64,000 nt of DNA, taken from an uncultured Clostridium sp. Its GTDB lineage: Bacteria; Bacillota; Clostridia; TANB77; CAG-508. This document shows positions 757 to 57,703 of this stretch, in pieces. Below the pieces are notes generated by a model. The model saw only the letters and a list, made by a program, of their open reading frames with translations. It ran no database searches and was not told where the DNA came from. How positions within the stretch are numbered: the first letter of the stretch is position 1; every line of letters begins with the position of its first letter. The stretch is from the NCBI GenBank assembly GCA_902461935.1, contig CABPZP010000002.1, forward strand, positions 43,685-107,684, read 5' to 3'. Both the position numbers and the translations under genes were made by a program.

Positions 757-1273
757 ATTTGAAAATTAAAAAGAAAGCTGATATAATACTAAACGATGGT
801 GCATTATTCTAGTCATACTGTCTATTATGAGGGTGGGGCTAAAAATCCACTAAAGGGCACATCGTTGAAGTTTCTTGTTTGTGCGCGAAATGCCAGTTTT
901 GTGTGTTTGCAGGGAGTAAAGGAATTAGGGTAGTATATAATGGCATATATATGATTCCCTCATTTCGCGGAGGCTTAAGTTGCATCTTAAGTATAACCTA
1001 TGTTGAGTGCCAAGACACAAAATACATAGTGTAGCCTGTCTCGAGTGAAGGTATTGGGATTAATTTACCGAGAATTTAAAAGTTCGGCCAAATTTTTAAA
1101 TTTTTAGTTATGAAATTGCCTTTGCAAAAAAGACTAATAATAGAATAAAGTATGTTAAGGAAAACTTCTAGGCTGTTAGTTCATTTAAGAACTAGGAAAG
1201 CTAAGGATTAAGGTACGGATTTAAGTGGTGATCTGGTGTTCATTTTATGAATATTTTCTTTAAACGGAAACGA
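757..1273. other. ORF-free, GC-elevated block; candidate structured ncRNA or long leader (family unassigned)
   Basis: No ORF of 60 aa or more in six frames. Visibly more G/C than the flanks. Complementary segments: aacgatggtgc (791-802) / gcacatcgtt (857-867); atgaggg (833-839) and cgcgaaatg (884-892) both complement ccctcatttcgcg (957-969); cttaag..cttaag (974-991). Confidence 0.3.
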
Positions 1274-1535
1274 CTAAATAGTAATATTTAGTAGAAAATA
1301 GAGAAATTCGACTAGACCTAAACCGTAAAATTTACTTAGCTTTTTACCATCTAAAATAATATAAATTAGAAGGGATTGAACAAAAATAGATAAAGCAAAT
1401 AAAGATAAAGAAAACTCAGGGCTGAAATGGTTTGTAACAGTTTTTATAACAACATTTATTTTATCAATAACATTTTCATTTATTTCAACAAATGCATTAA
1501 ATAATTTACCATTAATACCAGCTATACTCATTTTA

Positions 1536-4388: not shown

Positions 4389-4609
4389 ATGCCAAATATA
4401 TTGTTTTTTATACCTTGGTGTCGCAATCTTCGGATTAAAAATGGTCATTGACCATTTGGGGACATATTTAATATTTTATAAAATTATTTTCTAGATTTAC
4501 ACATACTAACATGTAAATTTATAAAATGAAGATTGCTCCAAATCGCACTCGCAGAAAACTGCTCGTTTGGTCGCTTACGCGGTATTTCAAAACAAATATA
4601 TTTGTCATT
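4389..4609 (+). mobile_element. MITE-like inverted-repeat element, copy B (about 221 bp, carries an extra ~100-bp insert)
   Basis: Same left arm (4389-4428) and right arm (4530-4609) as copy A. The insert holds its own palindromes: aatggtcattgaccatt (4440-4456) and atttaca..tgtaaat. Confidence 0.7.
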
Positions 4610-4648: not shown

Positions 4649-4687
4649 TGTCAAACGTTGTAGGGGTCGGAGGCCTTGGGCGACCCG
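4649..4687 (+). repeat. REP-like unit (TGTCAAACGTT GTAGGGG TCGGAGGCCTTGGGCGACCCG)
   Basis: Sequence read directly. ORF 4533..4718 is a translation artefact across MITE+REP. Confidence 0.8.
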
Positions 4688-7230: not shown

Positions 7231-7258
7231 TGTAGGGGTCGGCGTCCCCGACGACCCG
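7231..7258 (+). repeat. REP-like hairpin (TGTAGGGGTCGGCGTCCCCGACGACCCG), no TGTCAAACGTT leader
   Basis: Sequence read directly. Confidence 0.85.
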
Positions 7259-9011: not shown

Positions 9012-9212
9012 GATTACAAAAATTGACGAAAGAAAAGATATTAACAAATGTATGGGATGATGCCTCTGTTCGTCTGCAAATATGACATAAGAAAATGATA
9101 AATTCCATAAAAAAATAAAAACTATTGCCAAAAGAAAATATTTAATGTAAAATATTACCTAATAGTAAAGAACTAAAAATACAGAGCTGATTCAAGAAAA
9201 AGGAGAGAAAAA

Positions 9213-11342
9213 ATGGATAAAAACGTAAGAGAAAATATAGAAATATACAAAACATATGCTTTAAATAATAAAAACAAATTAACATCAAACATTCAAATAT
9301 CCAATATCAAAACTCAAACATCTAACCTCGGATTTCCAACCTCCAATACTGCAATCACATTGGTAGCTTTGGTAATCACCATAATTGTTCTATTAATTCT
9401 TGCTGGAATAACCATAAATATGGTAGTAGGAGAAAATGGAATATTTGCCAAAGCAACTAATGCAAAAAATAAAACAGAAGTAGCGCAATACGAGGAAGAA
9501 TTAAGAATGTGTGTATTAGAATTGCAGGCAGATGAAGCCACAAATGGAACAACATTTAATATGGAAACAATAAAAAATAAATTTGAAGAGAAAGTAAAAA
9601 AAACAGAAAATACAGATGATATAGAATTTCCAATAACAAAGAGCGAAACAAGATTAGATGGAATTTATAAAGGTTATGAATTTTATATAGACGAAAAATA
9701 TGTAGTACATATAGGAGAAAAAACAACAGGAATACGAATACTAACAAATATAGAACCAACAGGCTGGACAAAAGGACCAGTAAAAGTAAATATAACAATA
9801 AAAAGCAATAATGGACTAGCAAAAATAAAACCAGAAAACGAAGAAGAAATAGACGTAGGCGGAAAAACAGAATATGTAATAACAAAAGAAAATATAACAC
9901 AAAATACAACATTCAAATATGAAGTAACAGATAATCAAGGAACTACGACAAACAAAACAATAGATATAAAAAATATAGATACAAATGCACCTACAAAATG
10001 CGAAATAGAAAGAATAGAAAACACAGAAGAAGGCTTAAAAATAACAGTAAATGCGGAAGATGAAGAAAGTGGAATAGAAAAAATAGAATACCATGTAATA
10101 GATGGAGATAATAAAGAAGAAATATATACAACAAATGTAATAAATAATTTGTCTGGAACTCAATATAGTATATATGTAGTAGCATATGATAAAGCCGGAA
10201 ATAAAAAACAAACGGAAAAAATAAATGTAAAAGTAACAAGGAAATATGAAGATATAGAAGCAGGAGAAAATGCAACATTTGCAATAGATAAAAAAGGAGA
10301 TTTATGGTATTCAGGTTTTTCAAGTCATGGAGATCCAAATGGAAAAGGAAGTTTGAGCTCAACTCAATTTACAAAAATGATAGAAGGGAAAAATCTAAAA
10401 GAAATAAAATGTGGAATAAGGGATGATCACTTTTTTGCTTTGGATAATGAAAATAATTTATATGCATGGGGACATAATACTTATGGACAAATAGGAAATG
10501 GAATAAAAAATAATGCAAATTATGAAATTACAGAAATAAAAACAGATGGAAAATTATTTAAAGAAGTTGCTAACCAAGATACATTATCAAGAGCAATAGA
10601 TGAAGATGGCAATATATGGGTATGGGGAGCCAGAACATTGGGAAATGGAACGAATGGAACTACAGGCACTCCAATAAAATTAAATGTGAATACAACATTT
10701 AAGAAAATAAGTGCAGGAGGTACTTCAACTAATGCTTGGAATTGTACAATTGCAATAGATATAAATGGAAATCTGTGGTCATGGGGAAATAATTCATGGG
10801 GACAGTTAGGATTAGAAAAAAGTGTTAAGGAAAGCTTGGTACCTCAAGAAATAAATACAGAAAATACAAAATTTAAAGAAATATCAGCGGGAGAATACCA
10901 CGTACTTGCAATAGATGAAAGTGGAAATATATGGTCTTGGGGAGATAATAGTTATACACAACTTGGAAGAATACTAGAAGGTACTGAGAAACAGAGTAAT
11001 GTTCCAACTATGTTAAATACAAATGGTATAAAATTTTCGCAGGTTTCTGCAGGAGAATATCAGTCATTAGCAATAGATATAGATGGAAATCTGTGGTCAT
11101 GGGGAGACAATTCTCGTGGACAAATAGGACAAGAAAAAAATAAAAAAATTGCAATTCCAACGAAAGTTGAAACAGAAAGTGCAAAAGGAGTAAAATTCAA
11201 AAAAATATCAGCTGGAAATAATCATAGTGTTGCATTAGATGAGGATGGGAATATTTGGGCTTGTGGAGATTGTGGTAACGGAAAATTGTCTAATGGCTAT
11301 ACTAGTGGATATAAGAATACTTTTGAAATGATTGGAATATAA
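9213..11342 (+). CDS. large secreted/surface protein: pilin-like N-terminal hydrophobic module + Ig-like region + RCC1-repeat beta-propeller
   Basis: AITLVALVITIIVLLILAGITINMVVGENGIF resembles a prepilin-type segment. About seven repeats of the form (I/L)W.WG.N..GQ(L/I)G. Confidence 0.7.
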   Translation: MDKNVRENIEIYKTYALNNKNKLTSNIQISNIKTQTSNLGFPTSNTAITLVALVITIIVLLILAGITINMVVGENGIFAKATNAKNKTEVAQYEEELRMCVLELQADEATNGTTFNMETIKNKFEEKVKKTENTDDIEFPITKSETRLDGIYKGYEFYIDEKYVVHIGEKTTGIRILTNIEPTGWTKGPVKVNITIKSNNGLAKIKPENEEEIDVGGKTEYVITKENITQNTTFKYEVTDNQGTTTNKTIDIKNIDTNAPTKCEIERIENTEEGLKITVNAEDEESGIEKIEYHVIDGDNKEEIYTTNVINNLSGTQYSIYVVAYDKAGNKKQTEKINVKVTRKYEDIEAGENATFAIDKKGDLWYSGFSSHGDPNGKGSLSSTQFTKMIEGKNLKEIKCGIRDDHFFALDNENNLYAWGHNTYGQIGNGIKNNANYEITEIKTDGKLFKEVANQDTLSRAIDEDGNIWVWGARTLGNGTNGTTGTPIKLNVNTTFKKISAGGTSTNAWNCTIAIDINGNLWSWGNNSWGQLGLEKSVKESLVPQEINTENTKFKEISAGEYHVLAIDESGNIWSWGDNSYTQLGRILEGTEKQSNVPTMLNTNGIKFSQVSAGEYQSLAIDIDGNLWSWGDNSRGQIGQEKNKKIAIPTKVETESAKGVKFKKISAGNNHSVALDEDGNIWACGDCGNGKLSNGYTSGYKNTFEMIGI

Positions 11343-14932: not shown

Positions 14933-15395
14933 AATGTTAATCTCCTTTTTACAACATTAATCTTATTATACTATAAAATAAGGGAAAAATAAAGAGAAAT
15001 TTTAAAATTTAAAGTTAAGATAAAAAATGCTTGAATTTTCTTTATAAATATAGTATAACAAAAACATATTGTAAACAAAAAATTTACAATATGTTTATTT
15101 TTTTCAAACAAATTTATTTCAATGTGATTTTTATTCTAAAAAATCCAAATGAAAAACAAATCTAAATGAAAGGAGGTAAAACAGAAACAAACAGGTAAAA
15201 ATTATAACAAAATCTTGAATAAGAAAATACAAATTGTTATAATAAAGAAAGGAAATTTTTGAAATTAAAAAAAAATATTAGATTAAAAAATTATGATTAT
15301 TCAAAAGAAGAATATTATTACATAACAATATGCATAAAAAATAGAAAAGAATTATTATCAAAAATTATAGTTTGCAACGAAAATAAATTAATAAA

Positions 15396-15501
15396 TGTAG
15401 GGGCGGACGTCTCTGTCCGCCCGAAACAAAATAAAAATAACATTAAAATATTTAACAAACATAAATTAGACGTTGTAGGGGTCGGCGTCCCCGACGACCC
15501 G
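15396..15501 (+). repeat. two REP-like units inside the HUH pseudogene
   Basis: TGTAGGGGCGGACGTCTCTGTCCGCCCG at 15396-15423. agaCGTTGTAGGGGTCGGCGTCCCCGACGACCCG at 15468-15501. Confidence 0.85.
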
Positions 15502-15652
15502 AAAAAATACATATTAAATTAACAACATATGGAGAAATTATAGAAAAACAAATAAAAGAAATAAATAATATTTACAAAAATATAAAAATAGAAAATTATA
15601 TAATAATGCCAAATCATGTGCATATGATTATAGAATTAGCAAGACAAGAAAA

Positions 15653-15680
15653 CGGGTCGTCGAGGACGCCGACCCCTACA
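15653..15680 (-). repeat. REP-like hairpin, minus orientation
   Basis: rc reads TGTAGGGGTCGGCGTCCTCGACGACCCG. Confidence 0.85.
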
Positions 15681-15708
15681 AAATGGATTCGAGGAGAGTG
15701 AAGAAAAA

Positions 15709-15993
15709 ATGGCAGAGAAGAAAAATAAAACCTTAGAAAAAGCAAGAAAAGAAATGACATATCTAACAGGAGATGAAGAAATAAGAAGACTAGCAGAACT
15801 AAGAGAAAAATGGGAGATGGATTGGAATAGCTCTATGGATTATTCAAAAAAAGAAGGAATAAAAGAGGGTGTAACCGAAGGAAGAAAAAAAGAAAGACTA
15901 GAAAATGCAAAAAAAATGAAAGAAGAGAAAATACCAACAGAAACAATCATGAAAATAACAGGTTTAACAAAAGAAAAAGTAGAAAAGCTATAA
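15709..15993 (+). CDS. stand-alone fragment resembling the C-terminus of Rpn-family (TIGR01784-type) recombination-promoting nuclease/putative transposase
   Basis: 94 aa ending ENAKKMKEEKIPTETIMKITGLTKEKVEKL, the typical Rpn C-terminal helix pair. No nuclease core. Confidence 0.5.
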   Translation: MAEKKNKTLEKARKEMTYLTGDEEIRRLAELREKWEMDWNSSMDYSKKEGIKEGVTEGRKKERLENAKKMKEEKIPTETIMKITGLTKEKVEKL

Positions 15994-16142
15994 AACTATT
16001 TAAATTATAAAAAATATAATATAAATTTAACTACAAAATTTAAATAAAAAACGCTTGAAAAATTTAACTAAATATTATATAAATAAAACATATTGTGAAA
16101 ATAATATGTTTTATTTTTTAGCAAATAAAAGAGGAGATTCAA

Positions 16143-31199: not shown

Positions 31200-32159
31200 A
31201 TGTTTTTTAATGAAAAAGAATACAAGGAATATTTAAAGAAAAATAAAATAAATAGAGGAGACTTTGAAAGAAATAATACCTTTAGAAGAAATTTCCATGA
31301 ACAAGATAAAAATGGTAGAATAATTATAGATATGAAGAAATCTACAGAATCAGCAATTGATATAAGTAACTATTCAACTCCTAAAGGATGGTATATGTTA
31401 GATAATATGGATATGGTTCTTGTAAAAAATATATTTGGAGATGTATATAGAAATTTAAACGAAGAAAAATATAATTTTAGTAAATACAATGCTATTATAA
31501 TTCAATACTTATCGAAACAATTTGGAATTAAAAGTGCTAAATATTACTTAGCAACAGAAAAAGGAAATACGAGATTAACATATATAATAACACCAAGCTT
31601 TTTAAATAAAGATGAAAAATTAGTAGAGGGTAATTCAATATTGAAAGATCCAATGGAATTAAATATAGATAAAATTCTTAAACAGATTGAAGAATATGGA
31701 AAAGAGAAAAATTACAATATTGAAGATATTGTTTCAATAAAGCATGATTTTTTAAAGCAGACAATTTTCAATAAGTTTGTTATGCAATCAGACGAAAATA
31801 ATGGAAATTGGGCTATTATAGAAGATAAAATAAATGCAAAATTTTCTCCTATATATGATTACGATTGTTCATGTGGAGTAGAAACCAAAAATAAGCATCT
31901 AAGAAGTACAAATAATGGAAGTACAGAATTGAAAGATGTATTAGAGCAATATAAAGATGAAAAATGGCTACAGAAATACGTAAAAATAGCAATTTCTAAA
32001 GTTGACTTTGATAAAATTATAGATAATATAGAAGATGATAGAATAAAAATTGAAGAAAAAGTTTTAAATAGATATAGAAAATTTTTTAATGAAAGAAAAG
32101 TCGAATTAGAAAAATTATATAACGATGTTTATGAACAAAAAGAAGTAGAAGAAAGATAG
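31200..32159 (+). CDS. hypothetical protein; weak resemblance to the HipA C-terminal kinase fold
   Basis: FVMQSDENNGNWAII...FSPIYDYD is reminiscent of the HipA_C catalytic and D-loop spacing. No good RBS at the annotated ATG. Confidence 0.3.
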   Translation: MFFNEKEYKEYLKKNKINRGDFERNNTFRRNFHEQDKNGRIIIDMKKSTESAIDISNYSTPKGWYMLDNMDMVLVKNIFGDVYRNLNEEKYNFSKYNAIIIQYLSKQFGIKSAKYYLATEKGNTRLTYIITPSFLNKDEKLVEGNSILKDPMELNIDKILKQIEEYGKEKNYNIEDIVSIKHDFLKQTIFNKFVMQSDENNGNWAIIEDKINAKFSPIYDYDCSCGVETKNKHLRSTNNGSTELKDVLEQYKDEKWLQKYVKIAISKVDFDKIIDNIEDDRIKIEEKVLNRYRKFFNERKVELEKLYNDVYEQKEVEER

Positions 32160-32360
32160 AATAAAAAATAGAAAAATGCACATACCAAAATAAAAGGTAG
32201 GTGTATTTTTTATGGAAAAAAATCATAAAGAAGAAAGTGAAGATGTAACAAAATATGGTGAATTTGTAACCTCATATTTTGCTTGGATACCAACAGAAAA
32301 GCAAAAAGATATTGTTAAAAAATTAGAAAAAATCACTAATAAAAACAATAAATAAATTAA

Positions 32361-32558
32361 CGTAAAATACTGCAGGAGCAGACATCTCTGGCAGACCAAA
32401 ACAGAAAAAAATATATAAACTTACGTCAAACGTTGTAGGGGCGGATGCCTCTGTCCGCCCGTAAAAGAAAAAATTATATATAAATCAATGTCAAACATTG
32501 TAGGGGTCGGCGTCCTCGACGACCCGAAAAAAATATATATAAATTAACGTCAAAATTT
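32361..32558 (+). repeat. head-to-tail array of three REP-like units plus a terminal hairpin-less leader
   Basis: Units at 32361-32397 (decayed), 32424-32461 (GGGCGGATGCCTCTGTCCGCCC) and 32489-32526 (GGGTCGGCGTCCTCGACGACCC). Orphan leader aacgtcaaaattt at 32546-32558. Confidence 0.85.
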
Positions 32559-32786
32559 ATAATTGAATTTACATATTTTATGTATATAACTGTCAATAAG
32601 GCTACGTTTATCATTGCTGATACCATTAAGGTATATATTAAAAAAATTACATGATTAAAATATAAAAAAACATAAGAAAAAAACGCGAACATTTTTTCAA
32701 AAAACTATTGACAAATAAAAAATCTAATAGTAAAATACAAACATAAGTTCAAACGAACATAAATTTGAAAAAAGGGAGCGATAAAA

Positions 32787-33470
32787 ATGAATATATTTGG
32801 AATAAAAAGCAATGTAATAGAGTATACAGTTAATAAGGCAGATAATAAAGGAATATATATATCAGTACAAAATGGAGAAGTATTAGTAAACGCTCCTTGG
32901 TATGTTACAAGCAATCAAATACAAGAAGTTGTTGAACAAAAAAGAAAATGGATATTAGAAAAATTAAATGAATATGAAACAACAAGAAAGAATATAAAGA
33001 AATACATATATTTATTAGGAAAAAAATATGAATTAGAAATTAAATACGAAAATATTTCTGTACCGGAAGTAAATGTAGAAAATAGCATTGTAGAAATTTT
33101 ATTACCTAACAAATATAGAAAGATAGATAACAGAGCAATTATACAAATTGTATTAAATAAATTAATAGAAAAAGTAGCACAAGATGAAATAGAAATGGCT
33201 ATGGAAAAAGCAAGAGTATTATTAGGTTTTGCACCAGAGGATTTCAAAATAGAAAATATGGGAAATACATTAGGAAAATGTGAAAACAAAGTTATAACTA
33301 TAAACCCAGAAGTTGCAAAATATAATAGAACCGTTATAGAATATGTTGTAATGCATGAATATTGTCACTTAAAATATAAAACACACTCAAAAAAATTCTT
33401 AGAAATGATAGAAAAAAATCAAAAAAATTATGAAAAAATTGAAAATTTAATTTCAAAATATAAATTCTAA
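32787..33470 (+). CDS. YgjP-like (DUF45/M48-type) zinc metallopeptidase
   Basis: HEYCHL (HExxH) near the C-terminus; typical length. Confidence 0.7.
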   Translation: MNIFGIKSNVIEYTVNKADNKGIYISVQNGEVLVNAPWYVTSNQIQEVVEQKRKWILEKLNEYETTRKNIKKYIYLLGKKYELEIKYENISVPEVNVENSIVEILLPNKYRKIDNRAIIQIVLNKLIEKVAQDEIEMAMEKARVLLGFAPEDFKIENMGNTLGKCENKVITINPEVAKYNRTVIEYVVMHEYCHLKYKTHSKKFLEMIEKNQKNYEKIENLISKYKF

Positions 33471-34314: not shown

Positions 34315-34349
34315 CATCAAACGTTGTAGGGGCACGGTGCTCCGTGCCC
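34315..34349 (+). repeat. REP-like unit with stem GGGCACGG/CCGTGCCC
   Basis: catcaaacgttGTAGGGGCACGGTGCTCCGTGCCC, followed by the orphan leader atcgttaaatatt (34371-34383). Confidence 0.85.
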
Positions 34350-34545
34350 AAAAAAGATACAATTCAAAATATCGTTAAATATTCTAACATCATATATCAG
34401 GAAATATTTAACAGAAACTATTGCGCAATAAATTTATTTAATGTAGAATATAAACATAATTTATATCGAACTAATTTTATTCAAATATTTAATTCTTAAA
34501 TAGCCAAAAAAATTAAAATAATAAGAAAAATGGAGATGGTGCTTA

Positions 34546-35153: not shown

Positions 35154-35255
35154 CGTCAAACATTGTAGAGGCACGGTGCTCCGTGCCCGAAAATTAAAAA
35201 TATAATCTAAAATTCTGTCAAAAGTTGTATGTATCGGTGTCCTTAGGGTAACCCG
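35154..35255 (+). repeat. two REP-like units (second is AT-decayed)
   Basis: cgtcaaacattGTAGAGGCACGGTGCTCCGTGCCCG at 35154-35189. ctgtcaaaagttGTATGTATCGGTGTCCTTAGGGTAACCCG at 35215-35255. Confidence 0.8.
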
Positions 35256-36000: not shown

Positions 36001-36107
36001 TGTCAAATACTATAGGGGGAAGGAGTCCCTAGGGAGACACACTAAAGGTAAATATAATAGACAAACCAATGTCAAATATTGTAAGGGCGAACGCCTCTGT
36101 CCGCCCC
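36001..36107 (+). repeat. two decayed REP-like units
   Basis: tgtcaaatactATAGGGGGAAGGAGTCCCTAGGGAGAC at 36001-36042. atgtcaaatattGTAAGGGCGAACGCCTCTGTCCGCCCC at 36069-36107 (one stem mismatch). Confidence 0.7.
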
Positions 36108-41160: not shown

Positions 41161-41185
41161 TTGTAGGGGCGACCATTGGTCGCCC
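41161..41185 (+). repeat. REP-like hairpin (TTGTAGGGGCGACCATTGGTCGCCC), followed by a T-run so may double as the ATPase terminator
   Basis: Sequence read directly. Confidence 0.8.
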
Positions 41186-41333
41186 TTTTATAAATAAAAG
41201 TTAATATTTTTCAAAATAACAATCTGTATAAAAACTATATAAAATTACTATTTTTTAAATTATTATCAATTGACAAAAAGCATACATATAGAATAAAATT
41301 AACTTGTATTAATAAATTTTAGGAGGAAAAATT

Positions 41334-44518: not shown

Positions 44519-44560
44519 ATGACAAATAAATTGTTTTTAATCAACAAATATATTTGTCAT
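44519..44560 (+). repeat. minimal copy of the MITE termini (the two inverted ends abutting); may act as a terminator
   Basis: ATGACAAATAAATTGTTTTT-aatc-AACAAATATATTTGTCAT followed by tttatt. Confidence 0.55.
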
Positions 44561-44582
44561 TTTATTATAGTATAAAAATTAT

Positions 44583-45374: not shown

Positions 45375-45449
45375 TTTAGAGCTTACTATAAAATTACTTC
45401 TATATTTATAGAAGAAAAAACTCAAAAAACCATGCTACTTTAATAAACA

Positions 45450-45575
45450 AAATAAAGAAATCAAAAACGAGTATTGCTAGGCAAATGAAATAAAATTTTT
45501 GAGGCAGTACGTTTGTACGGCGATAAAATTTTATTGAAATTTAACAACGCAAGACGAAGTTTTTCATTTATTTAG
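45450..45575 (+). repeat. structured intergenic element E, copy 1 (upstream of rplC)
   Basis: Nested hairpins: aaatgaaa...tttcattt outside, ataaaatttt...aaaattttat inside, GC core gcagtac-gttt-gtacggc. Collinear with 47599-47729. Confidence 0.7.
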
Positions 45576-47598: not shown

Positions 47599-47729
47599 TA
47601 AATAGAGAAACAAGCAAAAGCGAGCAGTACTAGGAAAATGAATTCAAAATCCGCAGTCGTACATTGGTACGTCGAGGACATTTTGAATGAAATTTGACAC
47701 CGCAATGCGAAGGTTTTCATTGTTTCGAG
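47599..47729 (+). repeat. structured intergenic element E, copy 2 (upstream of rplB)
   Basis: Same architecture as 45450-45575: aaaatgaa...ttcatttt outside, ttcaaaat...attttgaa inside, core gcagtcgtac-attg-gtacgtcgagg, then tgaaatttgacaccgcaatgcgaagg. Confidence 0.7.
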
Positions 47730-47742
47730 AAAGGAAGTTATT

Positions 47743-48570: not shown

Positions 48571-48668
48571 AGGTTGGAAGTTGGAAATTGGAAGTTGGTT
48601 ATTTTTTATAGAATTTAATATTTGTAATTTTTAACATCAAACCTCCAACATCTAACATCTTGAGGTAA
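48571..48668 (+). repeat. intergenic hairpin family H, copy 1 (GGAAGUUGG arms / UCCAACAUCUAACAUC)
   Basis: 5' arm aggttggaagttggaaattggaagttgg. The 3' arm contains tccaacatctaacatc (48644-48659). Pairing needs G:U wobbles, so it is strand-specific. Confidence 0.7.
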
Positions 48669-50697: not shown

Positions 50698-50700
50698 AAA

Positions 50701-50745
50701 AGTTAGAAGTTAGAATTAAAGAATTTTCTAACATTCAACATCCAA
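50701..50745 (+). repeat. intergenic hairpin family H, copy 2
   Basis: agttagaagttagaa / ttctaacattcaacat. Confidence 0.6.
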
Positions 50746-50769
50746 TATGAAAAAAGGAGGATTTAATAG

Positions 50770-51440: not shown

Positions 51441-51469
51441 TTGTAGGGGTCGGCGTCCTCGACGACCCG
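51441..51469 (+). repeat. REP-like hairpin between rplN and rplX
   Basis: TTGTAGGGGTCGGCGTCCTCGACGACCCG. ORF 51432..51650(-) is a translation artefact of it. Confidence 0.85.
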
Positions 51470-54239: not shown

Positions 54240-54294
54240 AGATTAGAAGTTAGAAGTTTGAATTATTATATTCCAACATCTAACATCAAATCCT
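54240..54294 (+). repeat. intergenic hairpin family H, copy 3
   Basis: agattagaagttagaagtttgaa / ttccaacatctaacatcaaatc. The 16-mer tccaacatctaacatc (54272-54287) is identical to copy 1. Confidence 0.7.
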
Positions 54295-54342
54295 CTAAAT
54301 AAAGATTATATGAGAAAATAAAAAAGAAGGAGGCAAGTCTTA

Positions 54343-57498: not shown

Positions 57499-57657
57499 AT
57501 GTCAGACGTTGTAGGGGTCGGCGTCCTTAGGGCGACCCGAAAGATGAAATAAAAAATATTCCAAAATAATATATATATTTAAAATTTGATCTTAATTATT
57601 ATTTTGTCTTTAAATAAAAATTGTCAAACGATGTAGTGGTCGACGTCTCTGTCGACC
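57499..57657 (+). repeat. two REP-like units between adk and map
   Basis: atgtcagacgttGTAGGGGTCGGCGTCCTTAGGGCGACCCG at 57499-57539. tgtcaaacgatGTAGTGGTCGACGTCTCTGTCGACC at 57622-57657. The spacer shares ttattttgtctttaaataa with 24811-24835. Confidence 0.85.
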
Positions 57658-57703
57658 AGAAATATAAAAATAATTATAAATGTTTAGAAAGAAGATAATG
57701 AAA

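Follow-up and report, generated by a model that had tools for sequence, protein, structure and literature searches.

The closest described counterparts of the elements analysed here are repetitive extragenic palindromes (REPs) of the GTAG type, as in the REPs of E. coli and their composites, the bacterial interspersed mosaic elements (BIMEs), together with the REP-associated tyrosine transposases (RAYTs). One survey lists GTAG REPs for Proteobacteria, Cyanobacteria, Chloroflexi and the Planctomycetes-Verrucomicrobia-Chlamydiae (PVC) group, and none for Firmicutes (Di Nocera et al., 2013, PMC3733652); the Group 1 RAYTs found in Clostridia are weakly associated with repeats (Bertels et al., 2017, PMC5581495). 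The E. coli enzyme, TnpA_REP, needs both the GTAG and a stem mismatch, cuts single-stranded DNA at variable positions on either side of the REP and exchanges strands (PMC3333891). Here we analysed a 64,000-nt stretch from an uncultured Clostridium sp. (contig CABPZP010000002.1, positions 43,685 to 107,684, called the window below), which contains at 32361-32558 an array of three stacked hairpin units. The elements are GTAG-type REPs, short imperfect palindromes with a conserved 5' GTAG, high in copy number and mostly extragenic. The reading that we favour, with a confidence slightly better than even, is that the array is a head-to-tail cluster of such REPs belonging to a REP/RAYT system of gut Clostridia, in which the hairpin is portable and the leader and spacer around it are local and reiterated in tandem.

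Like the GTAG REPs of E. coli (PMC3733652), the elements of the window are GC-rich palindromes of 25-29 nt in many extragenic copies, with several stem classes in one genome and occasional in-frame intragenic copies. They differ in a conserved 11-nt leader directly 5' of the GTAG, which the described families do not have, and in their orientation: almost all copies in the window point the same way, and neighbouring class A REPs (defined below) are 2 in the same versus 0 in inverted orientation, so that the inverted pairing at regular spacing of BIMEs and of the REPINs (inverted REP doublets) is not seen. The REPINs of Pseudomonas (Bertels and Rainey) are likewise non-autonomous and RAYT-associated, and the inverted pair that we describe below within the RAYT open reading frame (ORF) has the geometry of a doublet, but the genomic copies are singlets or head-to-tail rather than inverted doublets. 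The IS200/IS605 elements (IS608, ISDra2) resemble the system in having an enzyme of the Y1 HUH type and in the recognition of hairpins on a single strand, and the system may also have their bias towards the lagging-strand template; it differs from them in that neither cleavage nor target sequence could be shown to be constant, element ends are not fixed, junctions vary between events and the unit carries no transposase gene. While REP/RAYT systems themselves are known, a one-directional, leader-bearing one with ORF-embedded copies is new here, and a limited literature search returned no description of a leader-bearing head-to-tail REP module or of REPs inside a RAYT ORF.

Anatomy of the array and of its REP family

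The module in which the REP core of this lineage (~27% GC in the window) is usually found consists of an 11-nt leader, (T/C)GTCAAAC(G/A)TT, a hairpin and an A-rich spacer, and measures about 60-65 nt; leaders follow one another at 58-67 nt and never repeat without a hairpin between them. By sequence inspection, 32361-32558 on the + strand contains three such units, head to tail and 60-65 nt each. Tandem Repeats Finder reports 32386-32506 with a period of 65, 1.9 copies and 77% matches, and a repeat search spaces the array copies of its family D5 at 63 and 65 nt, start to start. Unit 1 begins with a degenerate leader, ttaacgtaaaatact (32357-32371), which is similar to the orphan leader that closes the array on its 3' side (compare ttaacgtcaaaattt at 32544-32558), and continues with a decayed hairpin, GCAGGAGCAGACATCTCTGGCAGACC (32372-32397; weak fold of -4.8 kcal/mol, z-score -1.4), and an A-rich spacer (32398-32423) similar to those of units 2 and 3. 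Unit 2 is made up of the 11-nt leader CGTCAAACGTT (32424-32434), a class B REP with GTAG and a GGGCGGA / TCCGCCC stem (32435-32461; -8.3 kcal/mol, z-score -3.6) and an A-rich spacer (32462-32488). In unit 3, the 11-nt leader TGTCAAACATT (32489-32499) precedes a class A REP, GTAG followed by GGGTCGGCG tcct CGACGACCC with the conserved G.A stem mismatch (32500-32526; -9.9 kcal/mol), and the spacer AAAAAAATATATATAAATTAA (32527-32547), which is nearly identical to the sequence 3' of the REP embedded in RAYT genes. The array closes with a degenerate orphan leader, CGTCAAAATTT (32548-32558), that no hairpin follows.

An earlier, sequence-only reading of this DNA had described three GTAGGGG hairpins at this position. 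The three head-to-tail units stand, and the intact GTAGGGG hairpins are limited to units 2 and 3: unit 1 reads ctGCAGGAGCAGACATCTCTGGCAGACC, lacks GTAGGGG, folds weakly and is a decayed descendant of the GGGCAGAC..GTCTGCCC class, intact versions of which occur in L012 and L049. We confirm that the three stems belong to different classes, so that plain duplication of a single hairpin does not account for the array, that orphan leaders occur elsewhere, at 2778-2788 (TGTCAAATGTT) and at about 34373-34383 (degenerate), and that the pairs of units listed elsewhere exist, with the qualifications that the pair at 15396-15501 lies inside the ORF of a RAYT pseudogene and that the pair at 57499-57657 is split by 122 nt. 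The link which that reading drew to an IS200-like HUH enzyme is also borne out, by this pseudogene in the window and by intact RAYTs in relatives.

The motif GTAGGGG occurs 16 times in the window against 1.08 expected, a number reached in 0 of 100 shuffles, and 15 of the 16 matches are on the + strand; GTCAAAYRTT, the leader motif, occurs 9 times against 1.00 expected. In all, about 20 GTAG-preceded GC-rich hairpins, intact or decayed, are distributed over the 64 kb; leaving aside the RAYT ORF, nearly all of them are intergenic. They make up five or six stem classes, each of which is represented at several loci. The intact hairpins fold, as DNA, at -7.6 to -11.1 kcal/mol with z-scores of -2.9 to -4.9. 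Compensatory double changes across the classes are seen at 5 of the 6 consensus stem pairs, and GTA is invariant in an alignment of 13 copies. A G.A mismatch is conserved in the stem of class A (GGGTCGGCG-tccy-CGACGACCC), and the stems of the other classes are perfect. Besides unit 1 of the array, eroded copies are found at 9050-9076 and 35227-35255. The functional core is likely to be these 25-29 nt, GTAG plus imperfect GC-rich hairpin, and by analogy with TnpA_REP it would be the substrate of a RAYT on single-stranded DNA. GC skew is positive throughout the window, and the near-uniform + orientation puts the GTAG strand on the G-rich strand, which would be the lagging-strand template, as expected for substrates of Y1 transposases; one + strand REP, at 28957, sits between two minus-strand genes.

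Several other identities for the array or its parts were considered and rejected. The hairpins are not intrinsic terminators, since no T run follows them and no terminator was found in a scan of 32100-32850, nor do they belong to a known RNA family, as an Rfam scan of the whole window at gathering thresholds gave no family at the array and a single match, to an RNA elsewhere (see below). The GTCAAA of the leader equals the CtsR heptad, but the leader holds a single heptad; a genuine CtsR operator, the perfect tandem AAAGTCAAAGAAAGTCAAAG, lies at 2075-2094, upstream of the ctsR-mcsA-mcsB-clpC operon. Finally, the leader read as an opposite-strand promoter (TGTCAA for TTGACA) has no -10 box at a usable spacing, and the promoter scan near the array found only the promoter of the downstream gene (32708-32736).

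Alleles at orthologous REP sites

The sequence-only reading had proposed that the mobile unit, [GTAG-hairpin ... spacer ... TGTCAAACGTT], inserts 3' of CGTT in the manner of IS200/IS605 elements, without target duplication, and brings with it a fresh leader that serves as the next landing site. In its favour, arrays begin with a leader and several end with an orphan one, almost every hairpin has a T immediately 5', often TT, and a transposase of the HUH-Y1 class is present in the lineage. We compared its predictions with a census of leaders (L) and hairpins (H), counted as unique contexts or clusters, in the window and loci L001-L048. A unit of this composition predicts LHL at each insertion, yet LH is commoner, which disfavours the model: the unique cluster strings are H (34), LH (15), LHL (4) and one each of LHLHL, LHLH, LHH, HH and HL. 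Leaderless unique clusters number 34, and 29 of the 50 unique hairpin contexts have no leader, 14 have only a 5' leader, 7 have both and 0 have only a 3' leader. The converse scenario, a tandem repeat of leaders alone that was later filled by hairpins, is ruled out by the fact that a leader-to-leader spacing of ~35 nt occurs nowhere.

Alleles were compared in contigs obtained by exact-protein look-ups, which comprise conspecific contigs (98.7-100% identity), a sister species (~93%) and the further relatives L011 and L012. Presence/absence polymorphism had been predicted, and it is found at several sites; the array itself is identical, within a 430-nt intergenic region, in 10 conspecific contigs, which show no polymorphism of it. 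Neither further relative offers a clean empty site for it. In L011 the array is missing as part of a ~325-nt block that includes ~127 nt of unique DNA and whose ends are not at CGTT|GTAG, and in L012 an unrelated inverted-repeat element of ~200 nt occupies its position.

At the other sites, junctions were expected always to fall at CGTT|GTAG. Between adk and map, the window has two modules (57500-57659, +) that lie 122 nt apart with a small inverted-repeat element in the gap. Four sister-species contigs are empty here and read gaaaaaatat|aaatgttt, with no CGTT at the junction, and the filled allele of L018 is an 84-nt insert composed of a 31-nt arm, a leader, a hairpin and a 12-nt tail, its leader being 5' of the hairpin; the 31-nt 5' arm has no second copy among the comparator loci. 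At 36001-36107 (two modules, +), the conspecific contig L034 lacks the first module, 69 nt in length (ttaa, leader, hairpin and spacer), and keeps the second leader variant, the indel running from just upstream of one leader to just upstream of the next. From site to site, the breakpoints thus occupy different positions within the unit. Under the refutation criteria named in the sequence-only reading, which include junctions elsewhere and unit boundaries that are inconsistent, the specific model fails.

The richest series of alleles is that of the mcsB-clpC spacer, where the window carries a leader and a REP (4649-4687, +) and the conspecific contigs show four alleles, with no hairpin, either of two single hairpins, or both. 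The single-hairpin allele of the window is leader + GTAGGGGTCGG[AGGCCTTGGG]CGACCCG and the reciprocal one, present in L056 and L058, is leader + GTAGGGGTCGG[CGTCCCCGA]CGACCCG; the tandem allele has both hairpins and a unique 32-nt spacer ending in TTTAAAC. In L040, L043, L051, L052 and L054 this amounts to an extra 61-62 nt, hairpin plus spacer, placed exactly between TGTCAAACG(A/T)T and GTAGGGG, the only indel that lies at the CGTT|GTAG junction as the landing-site model predicted. However, the extra unit ends in TTTAAAC and not in a leader, and the series seems better explained by loss of a unit through deletion between direct repeats (GTAGGGGTCGG or CGACCCG), which would be the simpler reading because both single-hairpin alleles, including that of L056 and L058, can be derived from the tandem allele in this way.

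Between ctsR and mcsA, an orphan leader and its downstream flank are common to alleles that have different upstream arms and hairpins, and one allele has a different hairpin and yet the same spacer; this orphan leader therefore belongs to the site rather than to a unit that came in. Strain differences in the hairpin occur at five orthologous sites, and four of these retain both flanks, mcsB-clpC and ctsR-mcsA being two. The third is rplN-rplX, where the window has a leaderless class A REP (51443-51469, +) and other strains have other hairpin classes, three in total, between conserved flanks. The fourth is the region downstream of greA (19292-19319, + in the window), where relatives show other cores within conserved flanks; in L033 the insertion measures ~27 nt and consists of the hairpin alone, and four other sister-species contigs are empty. 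At the fifth, BrkB-flavodoxin, hairpin classes differ between relatives and the flanks are only partly shared. Spacers align better within an array than between loci (scores of 11.7 vs 1.5, with 4.7% of inter-locus pairs reaching the intra-array median). Every informative indel is bounded by microhomology or by direct repeats. From these comparisons, the leader and the spacer appear to be local-site, lineage-specific context rather than a target brought by the hairpin, and the orphan leader would mark the border of a module that lacks its hairpin or never received one, rather than a renewed landing site.

RAYT genes and competing explanations

The RAYT pseudogene of the window (15259-15701, +) corresponds to the N-terminal half of such an enzyme and matches NF047646 (REP-associated tyrosine transposase) with E = 2.6e-7 and 30.6 bits. 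It retains the HUH motif PNHVHMII, which starts at 15609 and is present in all aligned homologues, and an internal deletion has removed the half with the catalytic tyrosine, that is everything after ...TPTPT, so that this residue and the downstream asparagine are missing. Related contigs have intact homologues of 174-180 amino acids. When aligned to E. coli TnpA_REP (4ER8), two of them, P0005 and P0007, retain the equivalents of the catalytic tyrosine and asparagine, with the HUH motif and the Y115/N119 equivalents of P0005 in register. Their best family match is NF047646, at 67.9 and 71.5 bits, yet below the curated cut-off of 80 bits, a shortfall to which the embedded REP peptides may contribute.

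The RAYT genes of this lineage (window; L037, 4001-4787; L038, 4001-4776) differ from described ones in that the class A REP is within the ORF, in frame on both strands, and brackets the HUH segment. The direct copy, on the coding strand before the HUH segment, encodes VGVGVPDDP, is preceded by the leader ATGTCA(G/A)ACAAT and is followed by AAAAAAATACATATTAAATTAAC; the inverted copy, ~180 nt downstream and just after the HUH motif, encodes NGSSRTPTPT. The window pseudogene has three in-frame REPs (15397-15423, +; 15475-15501, +; 15654-15680, -), and the junction of its extra unit cannot be placed, the upstream coding sequence being too diverged. A further peculiarity is a small ORF of 80-94 amino acids with the C-terminal helix-turn-helix of the Rpn family, which follows the RAYT in all three loci (15709-15993, + in the window) as a conserved downstream partner. 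The canonical arrangement of REP, RAYT and inverted REP does exist in L084 (30% GC), where three head-to-tail class A REPs precede a RAYT of 161 amino acids and an inverted REP directly follows its stop codon; this protein has no embedded REPs, relative to which the REP peptides of the window lineage are insertions. The ~900-nt block with the pseudogene is absent in the sister species. It is flanked in the window (14990-15112 and 16010-16131) by a ~120-nt direct repeat with an AT-rich hairpin (aaacatattgt...acaatatgttt), and a comparable hairpin lies ahead of the RAYT cassette at two further genomic positions, in L037 and L038.

The class A core of unit 3 is also found in other genomes. The exact 26-nt core occurs in at least 120 metagenome stretches, and 60 of the 80 core loci listed are at ~60% GC, with a range of 25-67% GC. 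Among the matches listed, 68 unique contexts include a single one with a leader. Neighbouring class A REPs are 42 in the same and 52 in inverted orientation where contigs have at least 50% GC; in contigs below 40% GC together with the window they are 6 and 0. The head-to-tail arrays of L084 and L073 are plain tandem duplications that include flanking DNA.

On the reading that we favour, the leader-hairpin-spacer module would first have been reiterated locally, and slippage or unequal exchange involving the short repeats common to all units (leader, GTAGGGG(TCGG), CGACCCG) would then remove some of them. Cores would be replaced in place or lost, the agent being either a RAYT that cleaves the hairpin feet and exchanges strands there or short-patch gene conversion templated by other REP copies, and AT-biased mutation would erode old copies such as unit 1. 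The inconsistent unit boundaries are what variable-site cleavage like that of TnpA_REP would produce (PMC3333891). The structure of the elements, their excess over chance, the covarying stems, the association with RAYTs, the polymorphisms with their junctions and the occurrence of the core in other genomes are direct observations; catalysis by a RAYT in this lineage, the polarity of the individual indels and the link between orientation and replication strand are inferred.

A number of points weigh against this scenario. The direction of the indels, gain or loss, is not polarised by an outgroup, and the strand bias (15 of 16) is confounded by gene orientation, as most genes are on the + strand, in a window that contains neither origin nor terminus. 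Orphan leaders recur at the 3' ends of arrays (2778, 32548, L011, L036, L040 and L041) and are only loosely explained. Duplication followed by core replacement takes two steps, and a single insertion per unit would be simpler, given a mechanism with variable boundaries. Finally, the only RAYT copy of the window lacks the catalytic tyrosine in all conspecific contigs examined, in which ORFs of 87 and 94 amino acids are called, and for this reason the present turnover in the species may be purely recombinational or may depend on a RAYT copy outside the window.

The last point speaks for an explanation without any RAYT, in which GC-rich hairpins on the lagging-strand template stall replication, template switching, slippage and short-patch conversion make, swap and delete units, and the RAYT is a relic. 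Conspecific contigs are polymorphic even though their RAYT is truncated, the microhomology or direct repeats noted above at indel ends would fit, and the presence of several unrelated inverted-repeat families at the intergenic sites suggests that these are unstable hot spots. On the other hand, such dynamics leave unexplained an identical 26-nt core in genomes of 25-67% GC, the conservation of GTAG and of the class A mismatch, as in RAYT substrates (PMC3333891), and the RAYT genes that are flanked by or contain exactly this core. We regard this explanation as unlikely, although it is the strongest of the competitors.

We give rather less credence to the idea that the module embedded in the RAYT ORF is the master copy for the modules of the genome, and that coupling between enzyme and substrate has kept the 26-nt core identical across Clostridia of 25-67% GC. 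Its stricter form, which we find more doubtful still, holds that embedded REP and adjacent coding DNA were copied out of the RAYT gene together, so that genomic modules are fragments of a transposase ORF. Counting the spacer, unit 3 (32489-32548) agrees with the module inside the L037 RAYT gene at 56 of 61 positions. At up to 2 errors, the only level at which matches were taken as informative, the RAYT spacer is matched twice in the window, each time immediately 3' of a class A REP, and 0 times in 60 Markov controls (at up to 4 errors there is no enrichment over the controls). The leader is conserved as DNA in the L037 and L038 ORFs (ATGTCAGACAAT and ATGTCAAACAAT) while the encoded residues vary (MSDN, MSNN, KSND), and in L036 and L032 an unrelated gene has upstream of it the same combination of two REPs as the window pseudogene. 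But copying may have gone the other way, with a module entering the ORF, since in comparison with the REP-less L084 RAYT what is embedded is an insertion that exceeds the hairpin in size; spacers of other types show no relation to the ORF, and in the homologues P0024 and P0028 (~40% identity), which have the same REP-encoded peptides, the position of the REP within this loop is slightly shifted.

It is improbable, in our view, that the elements are instead selected at the RNA or regulatory level, as mRNA-stabilising 3' hairpins or operon punctuation, with stacking a result of function rather than mobility. Within operons, many copies do stand immediately ahead of the next ribosome-binding site (rplN-rplX, adk-map, mcsB-clpC) and are co-oriented with transcription, and the REP at 7232 is conserved between species; yet sites are empty in close relatives without other change, hairpin classes are interchangeable at one site, decayed copies are tolerated and neither an Rfam match nor a terminator signature is present. 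Such functions would moreover be compatible with a mobile origin and are no true alternative to it. Least probable of all is the self-renewing landing site, a mechanism against which stand the excess of LH over LHL, the inconsistent junctions, the site-bound orphan leader of ctsR-mcsA and the leaderless spread of the core in other genomes.

Other features of the window and wider significance

The remaining REPs of the window are all on the + strand. A leader and a class A REP (2731-2757) are followed by a spacer and the orphan leader TGTCAAATGTT at 2720-2788, downstream of an inverted-repeat element, and a leader with a class B REP lies at 62378-62414. Leaderless copies are those of class A at 7232-7258, conserved in the sister species, of the GGTCGAC class at 24641-24666, in a block absent from L012, of class B at 28957-28983 (the copy between two minus-strand genes mentioned above) and of the GGGCGACC class at 41163-41186. 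At 34315-34383, a leader and a REP of the GGGCACGG class are followed by a spacer and the degenerate orphan leader, and at 35154-35255 a leader with a GGCACGG REP precedes a leader with a decayed REP. Between these last two sites lies a truncated gene of the Rpn/Transposase_31 family (PF04754; 34546-35118), which conspecific contigs have in intact form (364-372 amino acids) and L012 lacks; REP modules of the GGCACGG class flank it as direct repeats, with ~30 nt of spacer plus leader common to both sides.

Several families of small insertions share the intergenic regions with the REPs. Inverted-repeat elements with the termini (A)ATG(C/A)CAAATATATTGTTTT are found at 2560-2705, 4390-4609 and 44520-44571, and a leader follows 14-40 nt after all three copies, with or without a REP; the leader sequence AATGTCAAA... 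resembles the terminus of these elements, and in the empty mcsB-clpC alleles the composite of element and leader is wholly absent. A second inverted-repeat family, with the termini CCAAAATAATAnATTAATCTAAAATTT and variable internal content, occurs at 24690-24830, at 57556-57612 and in the adk-map spacer of L022, and one of its elements carries an inverted GGCGACC hairpin. Further small families are at 45440-45560, 47640-47730, L012 9700-9890 and L038 3575-3750. One of them is an element of ~110 nt, polymorphic between strains, which is found within the ribosomal protein operon in the S10-L3 and L23-L2 spacers, and another is the ~200-nt inverted-repeat element at the position of the array in L012. 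Long AT-rich hairpins built from heptamers, (GTTGGAA/GTTAGAA)n facing (TTCCAAC/TCTAACA)n, are found between ribosomal protein genes at 48573-48660, 50700-50748 and 54247-54321, and also at 9260-9330; the number of heptamers varies between strains, and upstream of pilin-like or RCC1-repeat genes these heptamers also come after REP arrays.

Larger differences and a structured RNA were also noted. In the sister species (L027-L036), the S10 operon comes after the greA region with few intervening genes, as compared with 19300-44690 of the window, and ~23 kb (~21.6-44.7 kb) are elsewhere or absent. The gene of an RCC1-repeat protein at 9213-11342, with internal DNA repeats of ~160 nt (families D4 and D7), is absent from the sister species, and its 5' region has REP arrays in some conspecific contigs (L040, L041). 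The Rfam match mentioned above is a full-length OLE (ornate, large, extremophilic) RNA at 780-1366 (+), covering model positions 1-616 with 365 bits against a gathering threshold of 50; its host is here a lineage of uncultured, low-GC Clostridia of the human gut.

Studies of REPs and RAYTs have dealt almost entirely with Proteobacteria and with inverted REP pairs, and the window and its relatives extend them to Clostridia, where the same GTAG core is found in gut species of very different base composition. In the AT-rich lineage of the window, the copies are one-directional and head to tail, have a lineage-specific leader and are also present in frame within the transposase gene. The natural allelic series of conspecific metagenome contigs, in which a site may have no hairpin, either one of two or both, show turnover at REP sites and indicate that stacked REPs need not mean a self-renewing target. 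A set of substrates and intact enzyme sequences are now at hand for locating the cleavage sites of a Clostridial RAYT.

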